The notes beneath the pieces are model-generated. The model did not search any database and had not been told where the DNA came from. It saw nothing but the letters and a program-made list of their open reading frames with translations. The position numbers and the translations under genes were made by a program. A stretch of 44,016 bases of DNA from a phage. Numbering within the stretch: the first letter of the stretch is position 1; each line of letters begins with the position of its first letter. Where the stretch lies: sequence record PZ379180.1. One strand, given 5' to 3'. Shown in pieces: positions 12,244 through 39,062 of this stretch.

Positions 12244-12470
12244 TGAGCACCGCTTTCAGTAAACGTATGCAAGGCGTGGGTACACGCCTGCTAACCAAAT
12301 TCGGCAGCACGGTATCTCTGGTTCGTGCTGGCTCGAAAGTGTGGGATGAAGTTCTCGGTGAGTACGTCTGGTCTGCGGATGAAGTGTTGCCGTTGAAAGC
12401 GGTTCCGGTTCCGGTTAATGCTGGACTGGTAAACGGTTCGACGATTCAGGCGTACCGACATGATTGTTAA
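12243..12470 (+). CDS. head-tail adaptor, N-terminal fragment
   Basis: ATG 12243 (ATGA overlap); frame breaks near 12440-12467. Confidence 0.45.
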   Translation: MSTAFSKRMQGVGTRLLTKFGSTVSLVRAGSKVWDEVLGEYVWSADEVLPLKAVPVPVNAGLVNGSTIQAYRHDC

Positions 12471-17183: not shown

Positions 17184-17600
17184 ATGAAACTTTCTGATTT
17201 TTATTACGAAGCGGAAGCCGAAAAGGGCGCACGTATGCCGATACCGCTAAAAGACGGTACTGATTCCGGGGAATGGCTTAATGTTGTTTCTCCTGAGGCG
17301 GACGTTGCCGTTAAGGCTATGCGCGCGTTCACCCTTGCATACCGGGCAGTATTAGGGAAATTAAAACCGCTTCGTGATAAGTGCGAAGAGATGAAAGATT
17401 TCTCTGAATACAACCTGAAGATGGAAGACGCGGCGACGGACCTTAACCGTCAGTTAGCGATTGAATTGGTTAACGGGTGGAGCCTTGACGACGAATTCAA
17501 TAAAGAGAATCTGAACACACTCCTGACGCAATATAAACGACTCGCGGAACTTGTTGTTGTGTTTCATAACGAACAACTGCACCAGCTACAGGAAAAGTAG
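17184..17600 (+). CDS. tail assembly chaperone (G-like)
   Basis: 138 aa acidic ORF immediately upstream of tape measure gene; -1 frame open 17570-17767. Confidence 0.5.
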   Translation: MKLSDFYYEAEAEKGARMPIPLKDGTDSGEWLNVVSPEADVAVKAMRAFTLAYRAVLGKLKPLRDKCEEMKDFSEYNLKMEDAATDLNRQLAIELVNGWSLDDEFNKENLNTLLTQYKRLAELVVVFHNEQLHQLQEK

Positions 17601-17748
17601 ACGCGTTGCTCCAGTTCGCCCGTTGGAACTTCATAACCCGCCACAAACGGCGGGAATTTGACAGTATCGCCGATGGGCATAAAGCCGCGCTAATTGCTAT
17701 GGGGGTTATGCAAGACGCGCCGGATGCAACGCAGGCCGCTGGGCCGGA

Positions 17749-17964
17749 ATGCCCCCTGAGCTACTAACCACATTTGAGAAGTACAGGGAAATTAAATTCA
17801 CCCGCCGAGTGGACGACGACGGCATCAAGATGTACCCGCGCGAGCAATTACGATGGTCAGATTTAGTGGCGTACAGCACCGTTTCAGGCCAGAATATAGG
17901 GATGTTCGAATCCGACATCATCATGAGCTTAGACGCTATTTTCGAGGGTAGAAACGATGGCTGA
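17749..17964 (+). CDS. hypothetical protein, possibly distal part of chaperone frameshift extension
   Basis: 71 aa ORF overlapping tape measure start; frame open from 17683. Confidence 0.3.
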   Translation: MPPELLTTFEKYREIKFTRRVDDDGIKMYPREQLRWSDLVAYSTVSGQNIGMFESDIIMSLDAIFEGRNDG

Positions 17965-19036
17965 TGTAGCTAGTTTAGTAGTAAAAGTAACAGAGCAAGG
18001 CGCGAAAGCCACATCAGACCGTCTTGACAACCTTTCAAAGTCCGCAAAAGTAGCGGGGGCCGCCGTAGCAGGCCTTGCTTCTATCGTAGCGGCTACCGCG
18101 TATAAAGCTGCCCAAGAACTGGTTGACTCACAGCGGCAACTGGACAAGATGTCCGCCAGTTTGAAGACCTTAACAGGAAGTACCCAAGGTGCTAAACAGG
18201 CGCTAAGTATCCTGCAAGATTTTGCCCGCGATACCCCATACGGACTGGAGCAGGCGGTGGAAGGCTTCCGTAAGCTGGTGGCCCTTGGCCTTACCCCATC
18301 CGAGGAGGCGTTGCGGTCCTACGGCAATACCGCATCGGCTATGGGCAAGGACCTTAATCAGATGATTGAGGCGGTAGCCGACGCCAGTACGTTTGAGTTC
18401 GAACGCCTAAAAGAATTCGGCATCAAAGCCAAGCAGAACAAAAACGACGTAGAGTTTACATTCCAGGGGACAACAACCGTAGTTAAGAAAAGCGCTGCCG
18501 ATATTGAGCAGTATTTACTTAATATTGGTAACGTAAATTTTGCCGGTGCCATGGCGGACCAGGCCAACACCCTTAATGGCGCTATCGCGAGCGCCAGTGA
18601 CTCATGGTCGCAGCTAAAAATGACGCTTGCCACCAGTCTTGATGTTGGCGCACTTGCGGAACCTATCAGGTATATCAATGACTTGATCCAGGAATTAAAT
18701 GCGTCTGTTGCTTCCGGTGAATTAGCCGCTGAAATGCAGATGTGGGGGAACATCGCGTCGGAAGTAGGAAGCGCTATCGAGATGTCATTCGACGCTGCGT
18801 TTGGCTTTGTTGGCGATGCCATCAACGGGCTTAATGAACTGTGGGATTTCAGCAGCAAGAGTATTACGGATAGCGGAGAACAAACGGCTACTACCATCGC
18901 TGAATCCACCGCCGATGCGCTTGACTTCATCGCGGAAGAGTTCACCGCGATGGAGAGATTCTTTGAAGATATGGTTAAAGGCGCGCAGGACGCGGGCCGT
19001 CTTGTACGAGCCGCTTTTACCCCAGGGAATCAGTAG
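17957..19036 (+). CDS. tape measure protein, fragment 1
   Basis: Ala/Gln-rich helical 359 aa ORF after chaperone; frame breaks between 18979 and 19036. Confidence 0.75.
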   Translation: MADVASLVVKVTEQGAKATSDRLDNLSKSAKVAGAAVAGLASIVAATAYKAAQELVDSQRQLDKMSASLKTLTGSTQGAKQALSILQDFARDTPYGLEQAVEGFRKLVALGLTPSEEALRSYGNTASAMGKDLNQMIEAVADASTFEFERLKEFGIKAKQNKNDVEFTFQGTTTVVKKSAADIEQYLLNIGNVNFAGAMADQANTLNGAIASASDSWSQLKMTLATSLDVGALAEPIRYINDLIQELNASVASGELAAEMQMWGNIASEVGSAIEMSFDAAFGFVGDAINGLNELWDFSSKSITDSGEQTATTIAESTADALDFIAEEFTAMERFFEDMVKGAQDAGRLVRAAFTPGNQ

Positions 19037-19074
19037 ACGTAGCTAAAAATATCAACTTCCAGCTTGGCCTGGCT

Positions 19075-19371
19075 TTGGATACCCAGCGCGATGTCGCCGA
19101 CGTTACGCGTAAAAGTTTCCGCGAACAGGTAGAAGCTCAACAGGATATTGTAGCGTTAAAACGCGCGGCGTATGACATCGATAAGGAGTCCGCAAAAGCT
19201 GAGGGGTTAAACAAATTTAAGGTAACCGGAACTGGCGGCGGTTCTGACGATGACGGGTCAGCCGCAAAAGCTGCTAAGAAAGCGGCGGACGCGTTCGAGC
19301 GCCAGAAAAAGCGGCGGAAGACTTCTACTATCAGTCAATCCATCTTAATGATGACGTATTTCAGAAAATAG
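19075..19371 (+). CDS. tape measure protein, fragment 2
   Basis: -1 frame open from 18979 to 19371; breaks at A5 run 19306-19310. Confidence 0.6.
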   Translation: MDTQRDVADVTRKSFREQVEAQQDIVALKRAAYDIDKESAKAEGLNKFKVTGTGGGSDDDGSAAKAAKKAADAFERQKKRRKTSTISQSILMMTYFRK

Positions 19372-19400
19372 AAGCTAACCAGGAAGAGCAACTGTCTAAG

Positions 19401-20294
19401 TTGCAGGATTTTTATAGCAATAAGCTTCTTAGCGACCAACAGTACGAAAACGCCAAGACGCAGATTATGCTCTCTGCCGAACAGGCCCGCCAGGAAGAAC
19501 TGGACAAGAAAAGGAAAGAAGCCCAGGAGAAGCAGCAGAAAGGTGATGATTTCATGGCTCAGATTATGGGCCAGAACGCCACCGAGCTTGAGCTTCTGGA
19601 TATTCAGGAACAGCAGAAACTGGCGGTAGCCGATAAGTACCAGGAACAAGGTCTGATTAGCGAGAAGCAGTATCAGGCCGCGCTTAACGCCATCAACGAG
19701 CAGTACGCAACCAAGCGTGCCGACGCAACGGCAACAGCTTTCGGTAACATGGCTTCAAACATCGGGTCTGCGTTGGGCGAGGCTTCTGGTGCGTACAAGG
19801 CATTCGCTATCGTACAGGCCACTATAGCCACGTACACCGCAGCTATCGAGGCGTACAAGTCAACGGCTGCTATCCCTGTAGTCGGTCCGTTCCTGGCCCC
19901 AGTAGCCGCTGCTGCTGCTGTTGGGGCCGGTATGGCGCAGATTTCCGCTATCAGGTCAGCACGTGAACAGGGTGGACAGTTATCCGCCGGGCAGGCTTCC
20001 ACCATCGCCGAACGCGGTAAACCTGAGGTAATTATGCCGGCGGGGGCGTCGCGAGTACGCACCGCGCAACAAATGAAAGAGATTATGGGCCAAAACGGGT
20101 CTTCTTCCGGCCCATCTAATGTTACTATCGTAAACAACACGAGTTCGCAAATCGGCAACGTATCCACCGAGCAGGATGATGAAGGCCGTCTGCGTATCAT
20201 CATAGAAGAGCAAGTTGCTGCATCTTTGCAGAACAGCAACAGTAAGATTAGCAAGGCCCGCAAGGCCACAAGAAACGCGCCGGGGTTTAAATAA
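19401..20294 (+). CDS. tape measure protein, fragment 3
   Basis: Frame open from 19278; Q/E-rich coiled coil and hydrophobic AAIPVVGPFLAPVAAAAAVGAG segment. Confidence 0.7.
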   Translation: MQDFYSNKLLSDQQYENAKTQIMLSAEQARQEELDKKRKEAQEKQQKGDDFMAQIMGQNATELELLDIQEQQKLAVADKYQEQGLISEKQYQAALNAINEQYATKRADATATAFGNMASNIGSALGEASGAYKAFAIVQATIATYTAAIEAYKSTAAIPVVGPFLAPVAAAAAVGAGMAQISAIRSAREQGGQLSAGQASTIAERGKPEVIMPAGASRVRTAQQMKEIMGQNGSSSGPSNVTIVNNTSSQIGNVSTEQDDEGRLRIIIEEQVAASLQNSNSKISKARKATRNAPGFK

Positions 20295-20794
20295 TGAGCG
20301 ACTTATACTTTCCACGTAGCCTTAAGCCGGTGGTATCAAAAGGCTACTCAATGACCAGACGTAACAACGTCTGGAGTGTAGATTTAGCGGGCGGCGGGGT
20401 GCGTCAGGGGCGCGACACGTATTACGACGTGTTCCCGATAAGCGTAACTCTGATTACATCGGCATTGGGGCGGCAGGCGTTTCTGTCGTTCCTAGAAAAA
20501 GTAGACGGCGGTGCGTCAAGTTTCTGGATGGCGCACGACTTCGGCATGGGTATTGAGGATTACCAGGTAACCATTACGTCCACTATCGCCGAGTCCACCG
20601 AAGACGGGATTAACTGGACGATTACTTTCACGGCAACCGCCGAGAAATCGCCGTTCCAGGACCTTGAGAACCAGTGCCTTGTTAACAATCTGCCGGATTT
20701 GTATGGTTGTTATGGTGACGGGTTGGGGTGTTTCCTTAAAGCCTACGGAACCGCACAATCAACGTTTCCACGAATTTGGGAACCGATGCAATGA
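20294..20794 (+). CDS. minor tail protein (M-like)
   Basis: 166 aa ORF directly after tape measure, ATGA overlap. Confidence 0.55.
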   Translation: MSDLYFPRSLKPVVSKGYSMTRRNNVWSVDLAGGGVRQGRDTYYDVFPISVTLITSALGRQAFLSFLEKVDGGASSFWMAHDFGMGIEDYQVTITSTIAESTEDGINWTITFTATAEKSPFQDLENQCLVNNLPDLYGCYGDGLGCFLKAYGTAQSTFPRIWEPMQ

Positions 20795-24238: not shown

Positions 24239-26374
24239 ATGTCAAGCGGATGCGGTGACGTTTTAAGCCTGGCGGATTTACAGACCGCCAAGAAACATCA
24301 GATTTTCGAGGCCGAGGTTATCACTGGCAAATCCGGCGGTGTAGCTACGGGTGCAGACATTGATTACGCAACAAATCAGGTTACGGGACAGACCCAGAAG
24401 ACCATGCCTGCGATATTGAGAGATATTGGATTTGAACCCGCTTCTTTTGATTTTACCACAGGCGGTACCCTCACTTCTTCGGACCGAAATAAAGCCGTTT
24501 TGTGGCCTATGGCGGATGGTGGAGATGGGGATTGGTACTATTGGGAGGGCGCGCTGCCGAAGGTTATCCCGGCCGCATCAACTCCTTCGTCTACTGGTGG
24601 TGTCGCTGAGGGGGCCTGGCGTCCTGTCGGGGATATTCAACTACGCGCACAGCTTGCGTCTAGCGATGACGTGTTTGGCGACATGTTGGTTGCGGTTAAA
24701 CAGCCGTACTATGGTTCTGTACTCCAAACGCAACACAATAAAAACTCCCGAATCCTAGACCTTTACGATTTCAACGGCCTACCATCCAATGCCGATAACA
24801 CATCTGCATTGAATTCGGCCTTATCTGCCATTAACTCTATGGGCGGCGGCTTGCTGCGTATTAATATTCCTGGTGTTTATCTCATATCAGGGACGATAAC
24901 TGTTTACGCAAACACACATATAGTCATGGATGATGGTGTTGTTATTCGCCGAAACTACACAACAGGCGATAGTATGGTGAACCTTGCCCGCAATTCTGCT
25001 AGCAATGTCACTATCTCCGGCGGAGAGTTCGATGGCAACGCGCAAAACATGGGCGATACCGCCTTCAATATTATCTCCAGCACACTGAATACCGACCTCA
25101 AGTTTATAGGGGTTAAGTTCAGTAATGTTTGTGACTACCACTGCATCGACATCGCCGGATGGAAGCGCGTTGTCATTCGTGACTGCGTCTTTTCGGGATT
25201 CAAGTTAGTAGACCCATCACGAAACTATTCGGAAGCCATCCAGCTAGACCCAGGTGATATAAGCATCGGCACACCGACACAATGTAACGATTTGACAGTA
25301 GACAACTGCATCGTCATGCCAAACGCAAACTCTTCGCTCGGCAGTTTTGGCGCTTTGGTGGGAAATCACGCCACCTCATACGGCATACAGGATAACAATA
25401 TAAAAATAATCAATAACACCACAGAGGGGTGTCTTTTTGCCGGTGTTAGGGTTTTCAACTGGAGAAACTACCTTATTGCGGGTAATACATTCAGGGACTC
25501 TACCGGGCGCGGTGTGCACGTAACGCCGTATCCAAACTCAACTAAACCGCAGGGTTCGCGCCACGGTCGCATCGTAAACAATAATTTTATAAATGTACGC
25601 AACCCCGTGCTATTGGTCGCAGCTACCTGGCCCTTCACGGATGCCTCCGATGTTTGGCATGATTACATAGAGATAGTCAACAACTCCATGGAACTAAGTG
25701 AGACGCTCGCCTATGGGATAGATGCAAGATGGTGCCGTAATATCGTCGTATCTGGTAATACCGGTTCGGGCGGGTTGGGGCTTATGTCTATGAGGTTCCC
25801 TAATAAGTTCTCCGTGAAAAACAATACCTGGTCTAACGCTACGAATAATGGTATTTGGATTGCGGAGACCGATGCGACAACATTCATAGGAGCTGGGTTG
25901 ACGGCATTAGGCACTATAGAGGGGAATGTTTTCGAAAATATCGCCTACAATGGCATACATATTAACTGCAAGGCTAACGGCGTTACTATTCGCGGTAACA
26001 CCATGAGCGGTGTCTCTACGGCGGCAACATCCCGCTCCGGCATAACTATAGACTCTGGAGCGAGCAACGTCATAATATCAAACAATTGCATCATGGATAA
26101 TGGTGCGTCGATAAAACCGAACGTTGGTATCATTGCAACAGCTACATGCACAAATGTGCATATGGTGGATAACATCTCCTACGGAGGTGTTTCCCCTATA
26201 AATAACCAAGCCACAGGGAATAGCGTGCTCGTGCATACCGGACCAAATTCACCGATAACAGCAGGCATTGGTGCCCCGGTTGGGTCACAGTACCGTAGAG
26301 TAGATGGGTCCCCCTCAACTAGTTTTTACGTCAAAGAGTCAGGAACAAACTCTATTGGTTGGGTTGCTAAATAA
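24239..26374 (+). CDS. tailspike with right-handed beta-helix (pectate lyase-like) domain
   Basis: 711 aa, repeated N-x-G/T-rich coils (NNIKIINNT, VSGNTGSGG, IRGNTMSG, IISNNCIMDNG); AAAGAGGA RBS. Confidence 0.7.
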   Translation: MSSGCGDVLSLADLQTAKKHQIFEAEVITGKSGGVATGADIDYATNQVTGQTQKTMPAILRDIGFEPASFDFTTGGTLTSSDRNKAVLWPMADGGDGDWYYWEGALPKVIPAASTPSSTGGVAEGAWRPVGDIQLRAQLASSDDVFGDMLVAVKQPYYGSVLQTQHNKNSRILDLYDFNGLPSNADNTSALNSALSAINSMGGGLLRINIPGVYLISGTITVYANTHIVMDDGVVIRRNYTTGDSMVNLARNSASNVTISGGEFDGNAQNMGDTAFNIISSTLNTDLKFIGVKFSNVCDYHCIDIAGWKRVVIRDCVFSGFKLVDPSRNYSEAIQLDPGDISIGTPTQCNDLTVDNCIVMPNANSSLGSFGALVGNHATSYGIQDNNIKIINNTTEGCLFAGVRVFNWRNYLIAGNTFRDSTGRGVHVTPYPNSTKPQGSRHGRIVNNNFINVRNPVLLVAATWPFTDASDVWHDYIEIVNNSMELSETLAYGIDARWCRNIVVSGNTGSGGLGLMSMRFPNKFSVKNNTWSNATNNGIWIAETDATTFIGAGLTALGTIEGNVFENIAYNGIHINCKANGVTIRGNTMSGVSTAATSRSGITIDSGASNVIISNNCIMDNGASIKPNVGIIATATCTNVHMVDNISYGGVSPINNQATGNSVLVHTGPNSPITAGIGAPVGSQYRRVDGSPSTSFYVKESGTNSIGWVAK

Positions 26375-27052: not shown

Positions 27053-28473
27053 TTCTTACCTCGTCTCTTCATGTAATTAAGCAACTCTTCCTGTACCGAT
27101 TTCTTCTCGTCAGTACGTGTGGCAACAACCTCGTCCAGCGTGTCTTTAGCGACGATGTGATAGAGGAACACCGGTCGCTCGTGCCCCGCTTGTTTCTGGC
27201 GGACCGGGCCTATACGCTCAACAACCTGCAAATAGTGCTCAAGGTTCCAGCCTTGCGAGATGAACGCCAGATGATGACCCCCGTCCTGTAAATTCAAACC
27301 ATGCCCGGCTGACGCAGGATGCACGCATAAAATCTCGATTTCCCCACGGTTCCACGCTTCCATCTGCTTGTTACCCTTAGCCCCTTTGGCGAATGCCTGG
27401 GCCTGCGGGAATCGCTTAAGGATGCGCTCCAGTTCGTGCTTGAACTGATAAGCCACCAGCAACGGCGCGCCCTGTAACTCCTCGACAATAGACTCCAGCG
27501 CATCCAGTTTCGTGTCGTGCACTTTCTCCCATTCTTTGGTTGCTTCGCCGTCTTCGCCCGTCACATACACGGCACCGGATGCAATCTGCAAGCACTTTGA
27601 GGTCTTCGCCGCAGCGTTAGCCGCTTCAACTTCCCCGCTCTCCAGTTCTGCGAATAACTTCTCCTCCATATCTATGTACGCCTGACGTGCTTTCTTCGGC
27701 AGGTCGATTTCAACCGGCACGATAACAGGCGCTTCACAACCGAACCACTCGGCGGCGTCAATCGTCAGACTGATGTCCTTCATCTTCTGGTGAATCTCGT
27801 TATCTGCACCAGGGCGGGCGTGATATTCACGTGCCATCGCAGATTTTCCTTTCTGTACCGAATTAAACCAGCGGTCGGTGAATGCTGTATACGACGAACC
27901 TAGGCGCTCGCCAGCGTCGATAAACCAGTTCTGGCCCCACAAATCCTTGAGGCCGTTTGGTGACGGTGTACCAGTCAGGTTAATAAAACGCTTAACCCTT
28001 CCGAAAGCCACTTTACTAAGCGCCTTTGCACGCTTGCTACCACCTGAACGGCTGCGGAATGATTTAAGCTTCGTGCTTTCATCTGCAACGATAACCGTAA
28101 AAGGCCAGTCGTCTTTGCCGTAGTAGTCAATCAGCCACTCGATAACCTCATAGTTCGTGCAAACCACGTTAGCATCTGACTCCAGCGCCGCGATGCGGCG
28201 CTTCTCTGAACCAGTCGCATCTACAACACGCAGACATGGGAATTGCCATTTCTCTTGCTCTGCAGGCCACGTACCAGACGCAACCCGCAGCGGGGCGAGG
28301 ATTAACACGCGGTCGTCATCATTAAGTTGGTAGTTTCGGAACAGTCGGTTTAATGCCCACAGTACGCTGCCAGTCTTCCCAGCGCCCATGCTTGCCCATA
28401 TGTTGCAGCGATGGTGCCGCAGCATGAACGAAGTCATGAGCTTTTGGTACTCACGCCTTTGAAACTTACTCAT
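27049..28473 (-). CDS. SNF2-family DNA helicase
   Basis: Walker A GAGKTG, DEST box (VIVADESTKLKS), LTGTP, C-terminal helicase motifs. Confidence 0.85.
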   Translation of the reverse strand: MSKFQRREYQKLMTSFMLRHHRCNIWASMGAGKTGSVLWALNRLFRNYQLNDDDRVLILAPLRVASGTWPAEQEKWQFPCLRVVDATGSEKRRIAALESDANVVCTNYEVIEWLIDYYGKDDWPFTVIVADESTKLKSFRSRSGGSKRAKALSKVAFGRVKRFINLTGTPSPNGLKDLWGQNWFIDAGERLGSSYTAFTDRWFNSVQKGKSAMAREYHARPGADNEIHQKMKDISLTIDAAEWFGCEAPVIVPVEIDLPKKARQAYIDMEEKLFAELESGEVEAANAAAKTSKCLQIASGAVYVTGEDGEATKEWEKVHDTKLDALESIVEELQGAPLLVAYQFKHELERILKRFPQAQAFAKGAKGNKQMEAWNRGEIEILCVHPASAGHGLNLQDGGHHLAFISQGWNLEHYLQVVERIGPVRQKQAGHERPVFLYHIVAKDTLDEVVATRTDEKKSVQEELLNYMKRRGKK

Positions 28474-29395
28474 TTACCGCCCCCATGAATGCCTTTATAA
28501 ATTCAGCAGCTACTTGCGGGACGATGGCATTGCCGTAACCGCGCAATCGTCCCACTCTGGCGGGTATCCCATCAGCCAGCGGGAATGTGCCGGGTTCAAC
28601 TGGCCTGAATTTTCCATCCCGGCATCCGAGCCAGTCTGCCTCTGACCAGAAGCCGTGATGCGGATTGGTCGCGATATTTTCAGTCCCTGCTCCGTTGAGT
28701 AGTCCAGCCTGTCGAAAGTCCGGTCCTTTCCGTCCTTGCGAATCACTGTCTCTCCGCTCCCTCTGTAATCGTTCGCGGTCGGCGTCGCCCATGCCGTCAT
28801 CGCGGCGGCCCACCCCAGTTTGTTCGGTTTCGTCCTGCCGTCTGTGCTGCGCATGTTCACGTCGTTTGTTATCAGTGATACTGCTGGCGTGGGCCAATCT
28901 ATGCGCGCCGAAGAAAAGTCGGTCGCGTTTGTGCGGTGCGCCGACGCTACAAGCTGGGAGTACGGCAAACCCGACGGCGTAGTTTTCTCCTTCCAGGTGA
29001 GTTTGTAAATCGCACATCCACGATTTTGCAATTGCTGGCGCAACCTGCTCCCCAAAGAGGACTGGAGGGCGGCACTCGCTGATGAGGTCGAGGAACACAG
29101 GTGCGAGGTGTCTCGGGTCGAACTGTCCGAGTTGCTTTCCCGCTGCGCTAAACGGTTGGCAAGGCGGGCTTCCCGTCCAGAGAGGCGCATCTTCCGGAAC
29201 TCCCGCAAGTCTGAGCGCGAGAGGCCAGCCGCCGATACCAGCGAAAAAATGACACTGGGTGAATCCGTCGAGGTCTTCTGGCTTAACTTCAGTAATGCTT
29301 CTTTCATCTACAACTCCAAAAGGTATGTGACCCTGTTTTATTAATTCACGCAGCCACGCGGCTGCGCCTTTATCCCATTCGTTGTAATAGTTCAT
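28466..29395 (-). CDS. DNA C5-cytosine methyltransferase (central third apparently out of frame)
   Basis: Motif I FAGIGGW, motif IV GSPPCQPFSAAG, motif VIII APHKRDRLFFGA, motif X GNAIVPQV in this frame; TRD and motif IX lie in overlapping frame 28510..29307. Confidence 0.75.
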   Translation of the reverse strand: MNYYNEWDKGAAAWLRELIKQGHIPFGVVDERSITEVKPEDLDGFTQCHFFAGIGGWPLALRLAGVPEDAPLWTGSPPCQPFSAAGKQLGQFDPRHLAPVFLDLISECRPPVLFGEQVAPAIAKSWMCDLQTHLEGENYAVGFAVLPACSVGAPHKRDRLFFGAHRLAHASSITDNKRREHAQHRRQDETEQTGVGRRDDGMGDADRERLQRERRDSDSQGRKGPDFRQAGLLNGAGTENIATNPHHGFWSEADWLGCRDGKFRPVEPGTFPLADGIPARVGRLRGYGNAIVPQVAAEFIKAFMGAVNE

Positions 29396-31492: not shown

Positions 31493-32370
31493 TTCGATAA
31501 TCGTGCGGGCGTCGTCAGGTAAATCATCATCGGTACCAGCAGGTCATTCAGCGTCGACTTCTGTGCGTTGTGTATGCGGTGTGCGGGGGCCAGTTCACGT
31601 AGAATAGGCAGAAAGTCCTTACCGGTAAGCGAGCCGCCGTATTTACGTTGAGCTTCTTCCTGTAACTGTGCCTTGTGCTTCTCTACGGCTTCAATCGCGG
31701 CTTCCGCCAGTGCGACGTCAACCTTAAATCCGCGGTCGTTGATTAACTGGTCAAGTTCCAGTACACGGTCTTCGAACTCGGAGTTACCCCAACGCGGCAG
31801 CTTATGGAAGACTTCACGCATCGCAGTGATGTCGCTCACGGCGTACCTGATGAACATCGCCCACTCGTCAGGGTGAGTTTCTGCGGTGTAGCGGCGGATT
31901 TTGTAGTTCTTCGGCGTCGGTTTAGAGAAACGCTTAATCAGAGCCTTGCCGCGTTTATCTTTCGCGTTGTCTGCAGACACGCCCAGCACTTCGCACAGCG
32001 CATCAAGAGAACCCGGCAGCGCGTGACGGAACGCCCAAATCATAGTATCAATGGTGTTACTTACCGGAATATCAAAGCCCCAGCAGTGTTTCATGATTAG
32101 GCGATCGAAAAGTCCACCGTTGTGCCATACCATCTTAATGCGACTGTTTGGCTTAACCAGACGGCGTAGAGCGCGGTGTAAATCCACGGGCATATCACTG
32201 CCGTCGGTGCAATCCCATACCTGTACAGGCTCGTCGTCAAAAGCGTAGGTACAGATAAGCACTTCGGTAGTTGGATGCTCGGCGTAAGCATAGGAGCCGA
32301 CTTTCTTCAAATCGGCTTCGGAGAATGTTTCAAAGTCTAAGTAAAGCAATGTGTTCATAGTCTGTACCAC
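31438..32370 (-). CDS. DNA polymerase family A, 3'-5' exonuclease-domain fragment
   Basis: Exo I motif LYLDFETFS; ORF overlaps the polymerase fragment by 55 nt in another frame. Confidence 0.8.
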   Translation of the reverse strand: MVQTMNTLLYLDFETFSEADLKKVGSYAYAEHPTTEVLICTYAFDDEPVQVWDCTDGSDMPVDLHRALRRLVKPNSRIKMVWHNGGLFDRLIMKHCWGFDIPVSNTIDTMIWAFRHALPGSLDALCEVLGVSADNAKDKRGKALIKRFSKPTPKNYKIRRYTAETHPDEWAMFIRYAVSDITAMREVFHKLPRWGNSEFEDRVLELDQLINDRGFKVDVALAEAAIEAVEKHKAQLQEEAQRKYGGSLTGKDFLPILRELAPAHRIHNAQKSTLNDLLVPMMIYLTTPARLSKCASGPRQQRPRNITRCC

Positions 32371-33447: not shown

Positions 33448-33603
33448 TTAAGCATATTGGTACGGTTCGAACTCATCCTCTACAGGGTAGTATCGCATCA
33501 TGGTACCGTTCAAGAACGTGAACGATTCCGAGTGTAGATACCCATCCCAGTGCCATACCATCAAAAAATCTTTATCAGTCGGCATTTCATTTACTTGAAT
33601 CAT
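33448..33603 (-). CDS. hypothetical protein
   Basis: ATG at 33603 with AGGAGG RBS (track ORF 33448..33633). Confidence 0.35.
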   Translation of the reverse strand: MIQVNEMPTDKDFLMVWHWDGYLHSESFTFLNGTMMRYYPVEDEFEPYQYA

Positions 33604-36603: not shown

Positions 36604-36798
36604 TTGCACCTTTATCGGGTATCTTTTGCGAAACTTACCTAACCCGCAGTACACGCTGTAAGCCTCTGTGTAACTGAACACAACATGATACCCGCGCCCA
36701 TAAGGAACTACGTTAAGAACTTCTACTACTTCGCCTCTGTGGTTGGTGTATTTATTACCTTTCAGTTCGTCGCTTACTTCTTTAAATTTACCGCTCAT
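36601..36798 (-). CDS. hypothetical protein
   Basis: 65 aa ORF coupled to primase gene (overlapping stop-start). Confidence 0.4.
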   Translation of the reverse strand: MSGKFKEVSDELKGNKYTNHRGEVVEVLNVVPYGRGYHVVFSYTEAYSVYCGLGKFRKRYPIKVQ

Positions 36799-39062
36799 TC
36801 CAAATCCTCCTCTGTCACTGTCAACATTTCATTCGGTTCGTATATTGTCTTTGGAATCTTGTTATCAGTTATTCTGGTGTTCAGCCTGTAACGACCTGGG
36901 ATTATCTGATTGTTTTCGTCAGTACCCGGAACAAGATACCCGGCCTCAACCATTTTCTTAATCTTCCCGCGTTCTATGGCTTCTTTGGAGTTAAACGCCT
37001 TTGCGTTTGGGTCTGACTGTGCGAGCTTATTCGCCGCGGCGACTGTGATGCCTTCGTTGCCGTTGTAGGTTCCTTCCGCCAGTTCAAACGCCGCGAGTAT
37101 CGTGGCCTCCGAACTGTTGACGGCGTTCTCTACGGTTTTACGTACATTTTCTTTACCTTCTTTCGTCAACCCTTCTTCCCGCTCTTTCTCCTCGTCAGTT
37201 TTGAACGGCTCGAAACCCCACGGCATCAACACAAGCGCCTTGTGTGGTTCAGGCAGGTCCAGGTTTACGATTGTGCCGTATTCCTCTGTGCTACCCAGGA
37301 ACTCAACCGCTCGGTATTCTTTAGGTGGCGGCGCTTCACGGAACTGTACCGACTCCAGCACCATGCCAACCGTCTTCTGCTGAGGCCCGTGCTTGAATTT
37401 CGAGTGATATACGTTTATCTGACGGTCGGTTGCACGTTCGATTGTCAGTTCCACATCAACACCCGCATACAGCGCCCCACTGCCGCGTGCTTTCTTTCCA
37501 CCCTTCGGCGTATGGTGGACAACGCCTACTGCGGCTTTAGTTGCATCGCGTACTTCTTTCAGAATGGCGATAACTTTACCCATGCCGATTGCTGTTGATG
37601 AACTGTTCTCGTCGAACTTATCAATCGTCAGTGCCAGGGTCTGGTTAAGGGTGTCGAACGCAACCATGCCAATTGGCTCGTCGCCAGCAGTTTCGCGCAT
37701 TAACTTAATCAGGCTTTTAAGTTTGCCGACTTCGCCCATATCGATGACATGTACATAATCTTTACCTTCCTCGCCGTATTTAGCCGCGAGCGCATCAATA
37801 CGTGTACGTGTGGCTGCCCCACCCTCGCCGTCGATATAGAAATGGTGACAACGCTGGGTGTCAGCCCCTGCAAACCGGTATCCGGCGGCGCTCAGGTACA
37901 TCATCCCCAGCGTATAGAATGATTTGTACGTGCCCGATTCTCCGACGATACCCCAGATACAATCCGACGGCATGTACCCCTCAACGACGAAATCAGCCTT
38001 TACCGGCTCCGGTAACTCGTCCTCCTCTGAGTCCTCGTCGTCTTCCAGGTCGTCGAGGCTGCATGAGACAGATTCACGCGCCCCCCAACCGATGGCCTCT
38101 GCGACTTCACTGAACGGCAGCCCGGTCGCATCGCACGCGTACTTCCACACCTCTTTCGGTGACAGGCCTTCTGTCGCCGTAATGTCTGTGTCGTGAATCA
38201 TGGTTACGTTTGGCGCTTCATACCCCTCGCGCGGGAAGCACAGCAGGAAGTCGTCCGGGCGCGGTGTCGGGTCGCTGTAGTTTTCGGCATGTTCCGGTGT
38301 GGCTGGCATCTTAAGGCCGCGCGGCGTCATGACGCCGCCGTACTCAAACGCCAGTGCTTCAAACGCGTCTGTAAACGCGGTGCGCAGTTCTTCCGGTATC
38401 TGGTAATCCGATGCGCTGCTAACGTCAACGGCTGGGATGCCTTCCAGTAACTCGTTCGGGTCGATCAGGTCGTTGCGGCGCGACCAGATAACGGTAGCGC
38501 CGACCGGCGGCAGGTACATCGGCTGCGACAGAGTGAACCCGCTGCGGTCCGCACCCATGCCTTTGAAGAAGTGCTCCAGCAACCCATGACGAACACGGAT
38601 GATATCACCACCCTCAACTGGGCGGGCCAGCGGCATGACGACGCGAAAGCGAGGCGACTCATCGGTATGTGATGCCGTGGTGTAGAGACACATCGCCCGG
38701 CGGCTGCGATTAACCAGGCGCACCGCTTCCTGGTACTCTTCCGGTGTTGCACTGTCGAAGTCCAGATACGCCAGCGACGATTTGCTCACAGACGCATCGC
38801 AGCGATAAAAGAAACCTTTACGCGCCTGCTTAAAGTCTCCAGTTTCCGGGTCTTTTACGGTGCTGTGCGTAGAGTCGCACGCGGCTGTGATGTAGCCAGG
38901 GGCTGTCTTCGGGTTAATCCCGTCACGAATGGCATCGAGCGGCTGAATTAACTCTTTCAGGTCGTCCAGTGTTGCCGTGTGTGTGGTTCTGACGTTTATA
39001 TCCTTTTTCTCTGCCCGCGCGTTGCGACGTGACCACGAGTAGGATAAAATTACATCGGACAT
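36795..39062 (-). CDS. DNA primase-polymerase / helicase (PrimPol-like N-domain plus RecA-like ATPase)
   Basis: LDFDS catalytic-like motif in N-domain, Walker A GESGTYKS, Walker B-like VAFDTL; 755 aa; C-terminus TEEDLE. Confidence 0.7.
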   Translation of the reverse strand: MSDVILSYSWSRRNARAEKKDINVRTTHTATLDDLKELIQPLDAIRDGINPKTAPGYITAACDSTHSTVKDPETGDFKQARKGFFYRCDASVSKSSLAYLDFDSATPEEYQEAVRLVNRSRRAMCLYTTASHTDESPRFRVVMPLARPVEGGDIIRVRHGLLEHFFKGMGADRSGFTLSQPMYLPPVGATVIWSRRNDLIDPNELLEGIPAVDVSSASDYQIPEELRTAFTDAFEALAFEYGGVMTPRGLKMPATPEHAENYSDPTPRPDDFLLCFPREGYEAPNVTMIHDTDITATEGLSPKEVWKYACDATGLPFSEVAEAIGWGARESVSCSLDDLEDDEDSEEDELPEPVKADFVVEGYMPSDCIWGIVGESGTYKSFYTLGMMYLSAAGYRFAGADTQRCHHFYIDGEGGAATRTRIDALAAKYGEEGKDYVHVIDMGEVGKLKSLIKLMRETAGDEPIGMVAFDTLNQTLALTIDKFDENSSSTAIGMGKVIAILKEVRDATKAAVGVVHHTPKGGKKARGSGALYAGVDVELTIERATDRQINVYHSKFKHGPQQKTVGMVLESVQFREAPPPKEYRAVEFLGSTEEYGTIVNLDLPEPHKALVLMPWGFEPFKTDEEKEREEGLTKEGKENVRKTVENAVNSSEATILAAFELAEGTYNGNEGITVAAANKLAQSDPNAKAFNSKEAIERGKIKKMVEAGYLVPGTDENNQIIPGRYRLNTRITDNKIPKTIYEPNEMLTVTEEDLE

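Follow-up and report, generated by a model that had tools for sequence, protein, structure and literature searches.

The split tape measure protein (TMP) gene of PZ379180.1, the genome of a Kagunavirus (Guernseyvirinae) E. coli phage whose 44,016 nucleotides are called the window here, is very probably an ordinary single gene of 779 codons broken by two one-nucleotide deletions, most likely base-calling, consensus or assembly errors. We infer errors rather than real mutations from comparison with relatives, the TMP region being about 98% identical to fEg-Eco06, phiEc3 and Golestan. An earlier sequence-only reading had considered a one-base homopolymer deletion the more parsimonious cause while also pointing to a dnaX-like slippage site at the second junction. 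The former suggestion is supported by our comparison, in which each junction has a net loss of one nucleotide against every relative and the 779-codon gene can be restored.

That TMP-like sequence runs through three overlapping open frames was confirmed, with the same coordinates (Table 1), by the ORF list and by tblastn. The intact TMP of Golestan aligned to the window in three collinear HSPs in three frames, each with E = 0, which pair residues 1-357 with 17957-19027, residues 354-452 with 19015-19311 and residues 451-779 with 19305-20291. Both junctions are -1 shifts, and the frame of fragment 2, as written, continues to a TAG at 19369-19371. The PHROG 1538 profile is covered from position 1 to 811 of 811 by an intact TMP homologue (E = 3e-206); fragment 2 corresponds to its positions 370-451 and fragment 3 to positions 484-811 of 811 (E = 6.5e-97), the two pieces lying collinear on the profile. 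Matches to Pfam TMP_3 were found at E = 6e-9 to 9e-10, scoring 36-39 bits and hence below the 41-bit cutoff; that of fragment 1 (E = 9e-10) is slightly below the curated cutoff. Judged from these alignments, the coding in three frames is a matter of homology and not of chance.

Table 1. Features of the tape measure region of the window, and genes truncated elsewhere in it.
Feature	Position	Strand	Description
Tail assembly chaperone G	17184-17600	+	Intact; 100% identical to Golestan gp23; Pfam Phage_TAC_4
G-GAA-AAG slippery site followed by TAG stop of G	17591-17600	+	Conserved
C5 run	17752-17756	+	Third 1-nt deletion; C6 in nearly all close relatives, TC5 in one
TMP ORF 1	17957-19036	+	Frame 2, 359 aa (ORF list)
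TMP open frame 2	18979-19371	+	Frame 1
TMP open frame 3	19278-20294	+	Frame 0
TMP fragment 1	17957-19036	+	Codons 1-357 of 779, then 2 out-of-frame codons and TAG at 19034-19036; 98.9% identity (tblastn)
TMP fragment 2	19015-19311	+	Codons ~354-452, -1 frame relative to fragment 1; 97% identity (tblastn)
TMP fragment 3	19305-20294	+	Codons 451-779, further -1 frame, TAA at 20292-20294; 99.4% identity (tblastn)
Junction 1	19020-19027	+	CCCC-A-GGG (CCCCAGGG in the window); net 1-nt deletion
Junction 2	19303-19314	+	CAG-AAA-AAG-CGG; net 1-nt deletion
Truncated portal			275/493 aa
Truncated neck protein			75/119 aa
Truncated chaperone T			53/119 aa
Truncated DNA polymerase			306/750 aa
Truncated exonuclease			251/413 aa

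The gene is split in the window only. A single TMP CDS of 2340 nt is present in all three annotated GenBank relatives, and one tblastn HSP in one frame was obtained at each of the 44 related loci examined. The TMP protein cluster (90% identity, 95 members) has listed lengths of 778-780 aa, and TMP ORFs across the subfamily measure 756-779 aa. A TMP is expected to be of tightly conserved length because it sets the length of the tail. A window query of 2451 nt aligned to 2453 nt in the best records, and the two missing bases mapped to the junctions, each of which lies in a homopolymer context. As written, the gene is not one continuous ORF, and it becomes one only when a base is added at each of the two sites, giving a TMP ORF of 2340 nt and 779 codons that is 99% identical to relatives. 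Like the TMP genes of other Kagunavirus members (Golestan gp25, YP_009620105; fEg-Eco06, XDT02100; PHROG 1538), the window gene lies between the G/T pair of tail assembly chaperone ORFs, which it follows directly, and the tail tip genes, and in its repaired form it matches them in codon number, in 99% protein identity and in its end-to-end alignment to the PHROG profile. It differs from them in missing one base at two homopolymer sites and being read in three frames, which no other member does.

Differences downstream of both breaks are overwhelmingly synonymous, with synonymous to nonsynonymous ratios of 28:2 against fEg-Eco06 and 64:4 against the relative L020. Such an excess shows that purifying selection has acted on the restored TMP frame until the present day. 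We also considered an old TMP pseudogene, which we rejected in view of the same ratios and the lack of secondary stops.

At junction 1, the alignment of 33 relatives shows CCCCCGGGG in close relatives or CACCAGGGG in the next closest, encoding T-P-G-E; the window reads C4-A-G3 where relatives read C5G4 or CCAG4. GenBank matches to a query flanking this junction, aligned over 80-81 nt, are without exception one base longer than the query. The exact 30-mer of the junction is absent from IMG/VR, and no sequence in GenBank phages or IMG/VR shares the deletion.

The CAG-AAA-AAG noted earlier at 19303-19311 is indeed present at junction 2, in the frame of the middle piece. Relatives align there with CAG-AAA-AAG-GCG, CAG-AAA-AAA-GCG or CAG-AAG-AAA-GCx, and where the window has A5G (19306-19311) the closest GenBank relatives have A5GG and three IMG/VR relatives have A6G. 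As the sequences align, the A-run is not necessarily the run that was shortened; diagnostic is the total length of the A/G run, which is 7 nt in relatives and 6 in the window. The earlier proposal that reads confirming A5 would serve as a refutation was mis-specified because intact relatives also carry A5. Again, all GenBank matches to the flanking query (75-81 nt aligned) are one base longer than the query. The 30-mer bearing the deletion is absent from IMG/VR, GTDB genomes and JGI metagenomes, its intact form is present in 10 fetched loci, and the deletion is shared by no GenBank phage sequence.

One alternative is that the phage truly carries both deletions and that compensatory or programmed -1 ribosomal frameshifting rebuilds the full-length TMP, with E. 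coli ribosomes slipping at A_AAG (19308-19311) and near CCA_GGG (19022-19027) often enough to supply tails. TMP would then be a doubly "translationally corrected" structural gene, which we consider very unlikely. In E. coli, A_AAG is a minimal site that is intrinsically prone to -1 shifts, and indels can be offset by frameshifting at a low level (Atkins et al. 2016, PMC5009743). A -1 step after AAG does give the contiguous reading that had been predicted, ERQKKAAEDFYY, exactly as in intact homologues, and a -1 step at junction 1 reads the conserved TPGESVD. However, regenerating the exact conserved protein by a -1 slip at either junction is a property of any 1-nt deletion by construction. On G_AAA_AAG (19305-19311) the A-site codon could re-pair from AAG to AAA, but the P-site codon would be mismatched in moving from AAA to GAA, and only the minimal A_AAG tetranucleotide is present. 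The heptamer GAAAAAG is a common one, occurring 11 times in the window where 6.7 +/- 2.5 copies are expected. No stem-loop was found 3' of junction 2 (19312-19380, MFE -8.2 kcal/mol against a shuffle mean of -9.0, z = +0.33), and no SD-like stimulator 5' of it, 19285-19302 being GCGGACGCGTTCGAGCGC and devoid of GGAG, GAGG and AGGA. Nor is the site conserved: its codons in relatives vary synonymously (AAA-AAG, AAA-AAA or AAG-AAA) or are unrelated, and all relatives read in one frame. Two serial unstimulated slips would probably leave TMP, a structural protein needed in stoichiometric amounts, in far too short supply, and a similar rescue would be required in six other genes, some of them with 1- or 2-nt insertions. 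The dnaX-like reading is unsupported also because junction 1 is without any slippery heptamer, no zero-frame X_XXY_YYZ occurring in the overlap at 18979-19036.

Junction 2 shares with the E. coli dnaX frameshift, where A_AAA_AAG stands between a 5' SD-like element and a 3' stem-loop, its -1 direction and the A-site tetranucleotide A_AAG, which in both cases is decoded by the single E. coli tRNA-Lys. In contrast to dnaX, the first base of the heptamer is G instead of A, making tandem re-pairing impossible, and both stimulatory elements are missing (PMC5009743); no conserved two-frame ORF layout is present in relatives, and the shift, which makes a second product in dnaX, would make the only functional product of the TMP gene. 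As with "savior" indels such as that in the G-run of HSV thymidine kinase, a homopolymer indel might in principle be rescued by low-level slippage (PMC5009743). Trace enzyme activity suffices for the kinase, whereas TMP is stoichiometric and would require two serial slips, and nothing indicates that the window indels are real.

Transcriptional slippage appears still less probable, to the point of being barely worth entertaining. RNA polymerase on the A5 run (19306-19310) would add an A to a fraction of the mRNAs, which would then be back in frame at junction 2 and code for K-K-A-A, just as the A6 relatives do. However, bacterial RNA polymerase slips productively only on runs of about 8-9 or more A/T, so that a run of five is far too short, and junction 1 (G3/C4) and the other breaks would be left unexplained.

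A probable recoding signal of a known kind lies upstream of TMP, in the tail assembly chaperone module. The G-GAA-AAG-TAG at the end of chaperone G is probably where this module has its genuine programmed -1 shift (G/GT), as judged from its conservation and from the layout of the ORFs. Across 34 relatives with diverged flanks, the block CAGGAAAAGTAGACGCG (17589-17605) does not vary, and the slippery sequence takes the form CAGG[A/G]AAAGTAGACGCG; one relative (L033) has a lambda-type GGGAAAG at the junction of G and T. With G in frame 0, T follows in frame 2 (-1), from 17597/17606 to 17964 when the C-run error is allowed for, and Pfam assigns TAC_4 to G and TAC_18 to T. The deletion in the C-run splits the T ORF into 17606-17767 and 17749-17964. 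The resemblance of this predicted shift to the G/GT frameshift of lambda (G_GGA_AAG) is found at 17591-17597 and not in TMP: the shift site stands at the extreme end of G, and T, directly upstream of TMP, is read in the -1 frame. Unlike in lambda, the heptamer here is G_GAA_AAG, allowing only A-site re-pairing, and the zero-frame stop follows immediately. A-site-only re-pairing is also the case in IS1222, at G_CGA_AAG (PMC5009743).

Frame breaks are not confined to the tail module. The window has at least ten uncompensated indels, spread over nine genes of which at least six are other than TMP; two small ORFs are broken in addition to the truncated genes in Table 1. Besides those in T and TMP, break sites lie at about 314, 4040, 12453, 31532, 33461 and 34093. 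In the control pair Golestan and fEg-Eco06, no true frame break was found in 65 genes. A propagating lytic phage cannot carry frame breaks in portal, neck, chaperone T, DNA polymerase and exonuclease together. The 166-aa gene after TMP was considered as a further truncation and rejected, forms of 164-166 aa and of 458-472 aa both being common in relatives. Exact matches in a collection of 15 billion proteins were found neither for the three TMP fragments and one chaperone T fragment nor for the intact tail fibre, helicase-primase and J-like protein.

Another possibility is that the deletions are real and non-functional: the sequence would come from a defective genome, or from a minority or consensus variant of the sequenced population, whose TMP is truly truncated, without any recoding. 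Both deletions do stand in the record, and homopolymer runs are natural mutational hot spots. Such a genome could not propagate, so that all ten events, which affect nine genes (portal, DNA polymerase and TMP among them) amid a genome otherwise 95-99% conserved, would have to be essentially simultaneous, and the displaced frames show neither secondary stops nor an excess of nonsynonymous changes. We therefore regard real but non-functional deletions as unlikely, although less so than slippage of either kind. Portal and DNA polymerase are among the six or more other genes with uncompensated breaks, which makes an explanation by sequence quality far more economical.

Not all of the breaks are homopolymer contractions. 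Four are insertions inside GGCC, so a simple undercall of homopolymers does not describe the error process. We also considered whether the breaks are a systematic artefact at a methylated motif: besides the four insertions inside GGCC, three create GTAC, but about 155 GGCC sites are unaffected. The phage C5-methyltransferase has a weak resemblance to M.HhaI (E = 5e-7).

Under the preferred reading, that of sequence errors, a low-accuracy genome sequence would have lost one base at 19020-19027 (G4 to G3 or C5 to C4) and another at 19306-19311 (A6 to A5 or GG to G). In the real phage, full-length TMP (about 80 kDa, as estimated from 779 aa) would come from ordinary translation of a gene that holds no recoding signal. 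The main value of these findings is in quality control, as PZ379180.1 would be an error-containing Kagunavirus genome. Its split ORFs (TMP, portal, neck, chaperone T, DNA polymerase and exonuclease) should not be taken for recoding, pseudogenes or novel small genes, and other findings from this genome that are based on frame changes should be discounted likewise. The one biologically meaningful recoding signal nearby is probably the G-GAA-AAG-TAG of the chaperone G/GT pair.

The tail length tape measure protein (TMP) gene is spread over three separate plus-strand frames, with start coordinates of 2, 1 and 0 modulo 3, and the frame therefore changes by -1 at each junction. The coordinates and three-frame description of the sequence-only reading agree with the ORF table, the open frames and the position of CAG-AAA-AAG (19303-19311), which is in frame with the middle piece. 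Megablast of 17900-20350 matched 245 GenBank phage records, the best being the Kagunavirus (Guernseyvirinae) coliphages fEg-Eco06, phiEc3/4, K-01/02 and Golestan at 97-98% identity, and each full-length match paired 2453 nt of the record with the 2451-nt query. This region is annotated in fEg-Eco06, Golestan and phiEc3 as a single CDS of 2340 nt ("tail length tape measure protein") that comes after two "tail assembly chaperone" ORFs and before tail tip genes. PHROG 1538 (tail length tape measure protein) is covered over its full length by the intact homologue (E = 3e-206), and pieces 2 and 3 of the window fall on profile positions 370-451 and 484-811. The N-terminal part also hits Pfam TMP_3 at E ~1e-9, a little under that family's curated cutoff.

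Pieces of the TMP gene, single-base deletions and frame breaks in the window (products at breaks read from normal start codons, sequence as written)
Feature	Position	Strand	Window	Relatives or homologue	Source
TMP piece 1	17957-19036	+	359 aa		ORF table
TMP piece 2	19075-19371 (frame open from 18979)	+	98 aa		ORF table
TMP piece 3	19401-20294 (frame open from 19278)	+	297 aa		ORF table
Single-base deletion	~17752		C5	C6	blastn
Single-base deletion	~19025		ACCCCA-GGGAAT	ACCCCCGGGGAAT	blastn
Single-base deletion	~19311		CAGAAAAA-GCGG	CAGAAAAAGGCGG	blastn
Small ORF, break	~314				tblastn
Portal, break	~4040		275 aa	493 aa	tblastn
Neck protein, break	~12453		75 aa	119 aa	tblastn
Chaperone T, break	~17752		53 aa	119 aa	tblastn
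TMP, two breaks			359 aa	779 aa	tblastn
DNA polymerase, 2-nt insertion	~31532-31535		306 aa	750 aa	tblastn
Small ORF, break	~33461				tblastn
Exonuclease, break (T5 to T4)	~34093		251 aa	413 aa	tblastn

The single-base deletions were placed by whole-window blastn against two complete relatives, and the junction positions were refined by aligning, with MAFFT, the TMP genes of 33 relatives, every one of which keeps a single frame across both junctions. At junction 1 (19020-19027) the sequence is ACC-CCC-GGG-GAA in the closest relatives and ACA-CCA-GGG-GAA in the next group; ACC-CCA-GGG-AAT in the window would most simply reflect loss of one G from G4, or C5G4 minus one base plus one substitution. 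Codons at junction 2 (19303-19314) are CAG-AAA-AAG-GCG in four relatives, CAG-AAA-AAA-GCG in three, CAG-AAG-AAA-GCx in 15 and unrelated in 11 distant ones. The window's CAGAAAAAGCGG is therefore a 7-nt A/G run minus one base, which may be an A or a G.

A tblastn survey with Golestan TMP gave one HSP in one frame in all 44 related loci (three from GenBank and 41 from IMG/VR, identity down to 52%), and three HSPs in three frames only in the window. At 90% identity, Golestan TMP belongs to a cluster of 95 proteins listed as 778-780 aa long, TMP ORFs of the subfamily span 756-779 aa, and the window fragments were found as predicted proteins nowhere in the collection that holds this cluster. Junction-centred queries of 81 nt matched 14-17 GenBank records, none at 100% identity, and the record's aligned stretch was one base longer than the query's in every match. 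The 30-mer with the junction 1 deletion was not found in IMG/VR, nor that of junction 2 in IMG/VR, GTDB genomes or JGI metagenomes; the intact 31-mer is present in ten fetched loci.

With one G added after each of 19027 and 19311, the gene becomes a 2340-nt ORF of 779 codons whose sole stop is terminal. The repaired protein shares 99% identity with relatives and contains ...AAFTPGESVDVAKN... and ...AFERQKKAAEDFYYQS.... Codon differences 3' of both breaks are 28:2 synonymous to nonsynonymous against fEg-Eco06 and 64:4 against the related locus L020. These ratios show that purifying selection has acted on the restored frame for as long as these phages have been diverging; the TMP breaks are therefore very recent or not real. 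That they are real but non-functional mutations seems improbable.

Compensatory or programmed slippage at the junctions is less probable still. Productive transcriptional slippage would need a longer run than A5, and the junction 1 overlap (18979-19036) contains no zero-frame X_XXY_YYZ. A_AAG does act in E. coli as a minimal site for -1 shifting (Atkins et al. 2016, PMC5009743), but the dnaX site is A_AAA_AAG (same source), and the G_AAA_AAG of junction 2 cannot re-pair in the P site. No SD-like motif is present in the 18 nt upstream, the 69 nt downstream are no more stable than shuffles (-8.2 vs -9.0 kcal/mol, z = +0.33), and the MAFFT alignment shows no conservation of the site; the dnaX-like recoding proposed from sequence thus finds no support here. 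Also against a dedicated signal, the heptamer GAAAAAG has 11 copies in the window, where 6.7 +/- 2.5 are expected. A -1 step at both junctions does restore the conserved protein, because any 1-nt deletion automatically gives this result.

A tblastn comparison of the window with 72 Golestan proteins located the frame breaks in the table, all of them uncompensated, and identity on either side of every break is 96-100%. In a control search of the fEg-Eco06 genome with the proteins of Golestan, none of 65 genes had a true frame break. Chaperone T has C5 at 17752-17756 against C6 in nearly all close relatives (TC5 in one), and this 1-nt deletion splits its ORF into 17606-17767 and 17749-17964. Four breaks are homopolymer contractions (17752, 19025, 19311 and 34093). 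Four frame-breaking insertions lie inside GGCC of the relatives (311-316, 12450-12457, 31532-31537 and 33459-33464), changing it to GGCTCC, GTACC, GGTACC or GGTAC and creating GTAC in three of four. Indels affect ~3.4% of GGCC sites compared with 0.5% over all 4-mers, yet ~155 GGCC sites are intact; faulty base-calling at modified sites may be the cause. Overall, the window resembles a low-accuracy assembly. Error-prone sequencing or assembly would account for the breaks in TMP and elsewhere, and is the economical explanation, since no virulent phage could have been grown with every one of these lesions. We are highly confident that the three-frame TMP is an ordinary gene with two indel errors.

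The gene 3' of TMP (20294-20794) encodes 166 aa against 465-472 aa in the closest relatives, with a ~900-nt difference at 20740-20791. Another truncation was considered here and rejected, since short (164-166 aa) and long (458-472 aa) forms are both widespread in the subfamily; the length difference is a natural module polymorphism. The tail fibre/tailspike (24239-26374, 711 aa) matches that of Golestan only in its N-terminal ~143 aa (64% identity) and the helicase-primase (36795-39062, minus strand, 755 aa) has only ~33% identity; relative to the nearest genomes, both appear to be mosaic replacements. A phage C5-cytosine methyltransferase (28469-29395, minus strand) is 100% identical to Golestan gp34 but only weakly similar to M.HhaI in PDB (E = 5e-7, residues 67-162). 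GATC sites are markedly scarce, with 8 in the 44-kb window and 9-10 in two relatives, whereas most other palindromic 4-mers number ~70-240 in the parts of the two relatives that were aligned; CTAG, with 15-19 sites in those parts, is scarce as well.

Upstream of TMP, the chaperone G ORF (17184-17600) ends in ...CAG-GAA-AAG-TAG, with T in the -1 frame. The 17-nt block CAGGAAAAGTAGACGCG (17589-17605; CAG-GAA-AAG-TAG-ACGCG) is invariant in 34 relatives despite extensively diverged flanks, and where the window has G_GAA_AAG, one relative (L033) carries the lambda heptamer GGGAAAG. A hairpin at 17637-17654, 40 nt downstream, is not significant (z = -0.84) and lacks conservation in the distant group. 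GenBank relatives have G and T annotated as separate ORFs without a join. The G/GT frameshift is conserved in long-tailed phages (PMC5009743, Figure 4 legend), and the 17-nt block with its -1 T frame matches this arrangement. G_GAA_AAG directly 5' of the G stop is thus probably a canonical G/GT -1 frameshift site, and the true recoding signal of the tail module would lie at this upstream G/T site and not in TMP.
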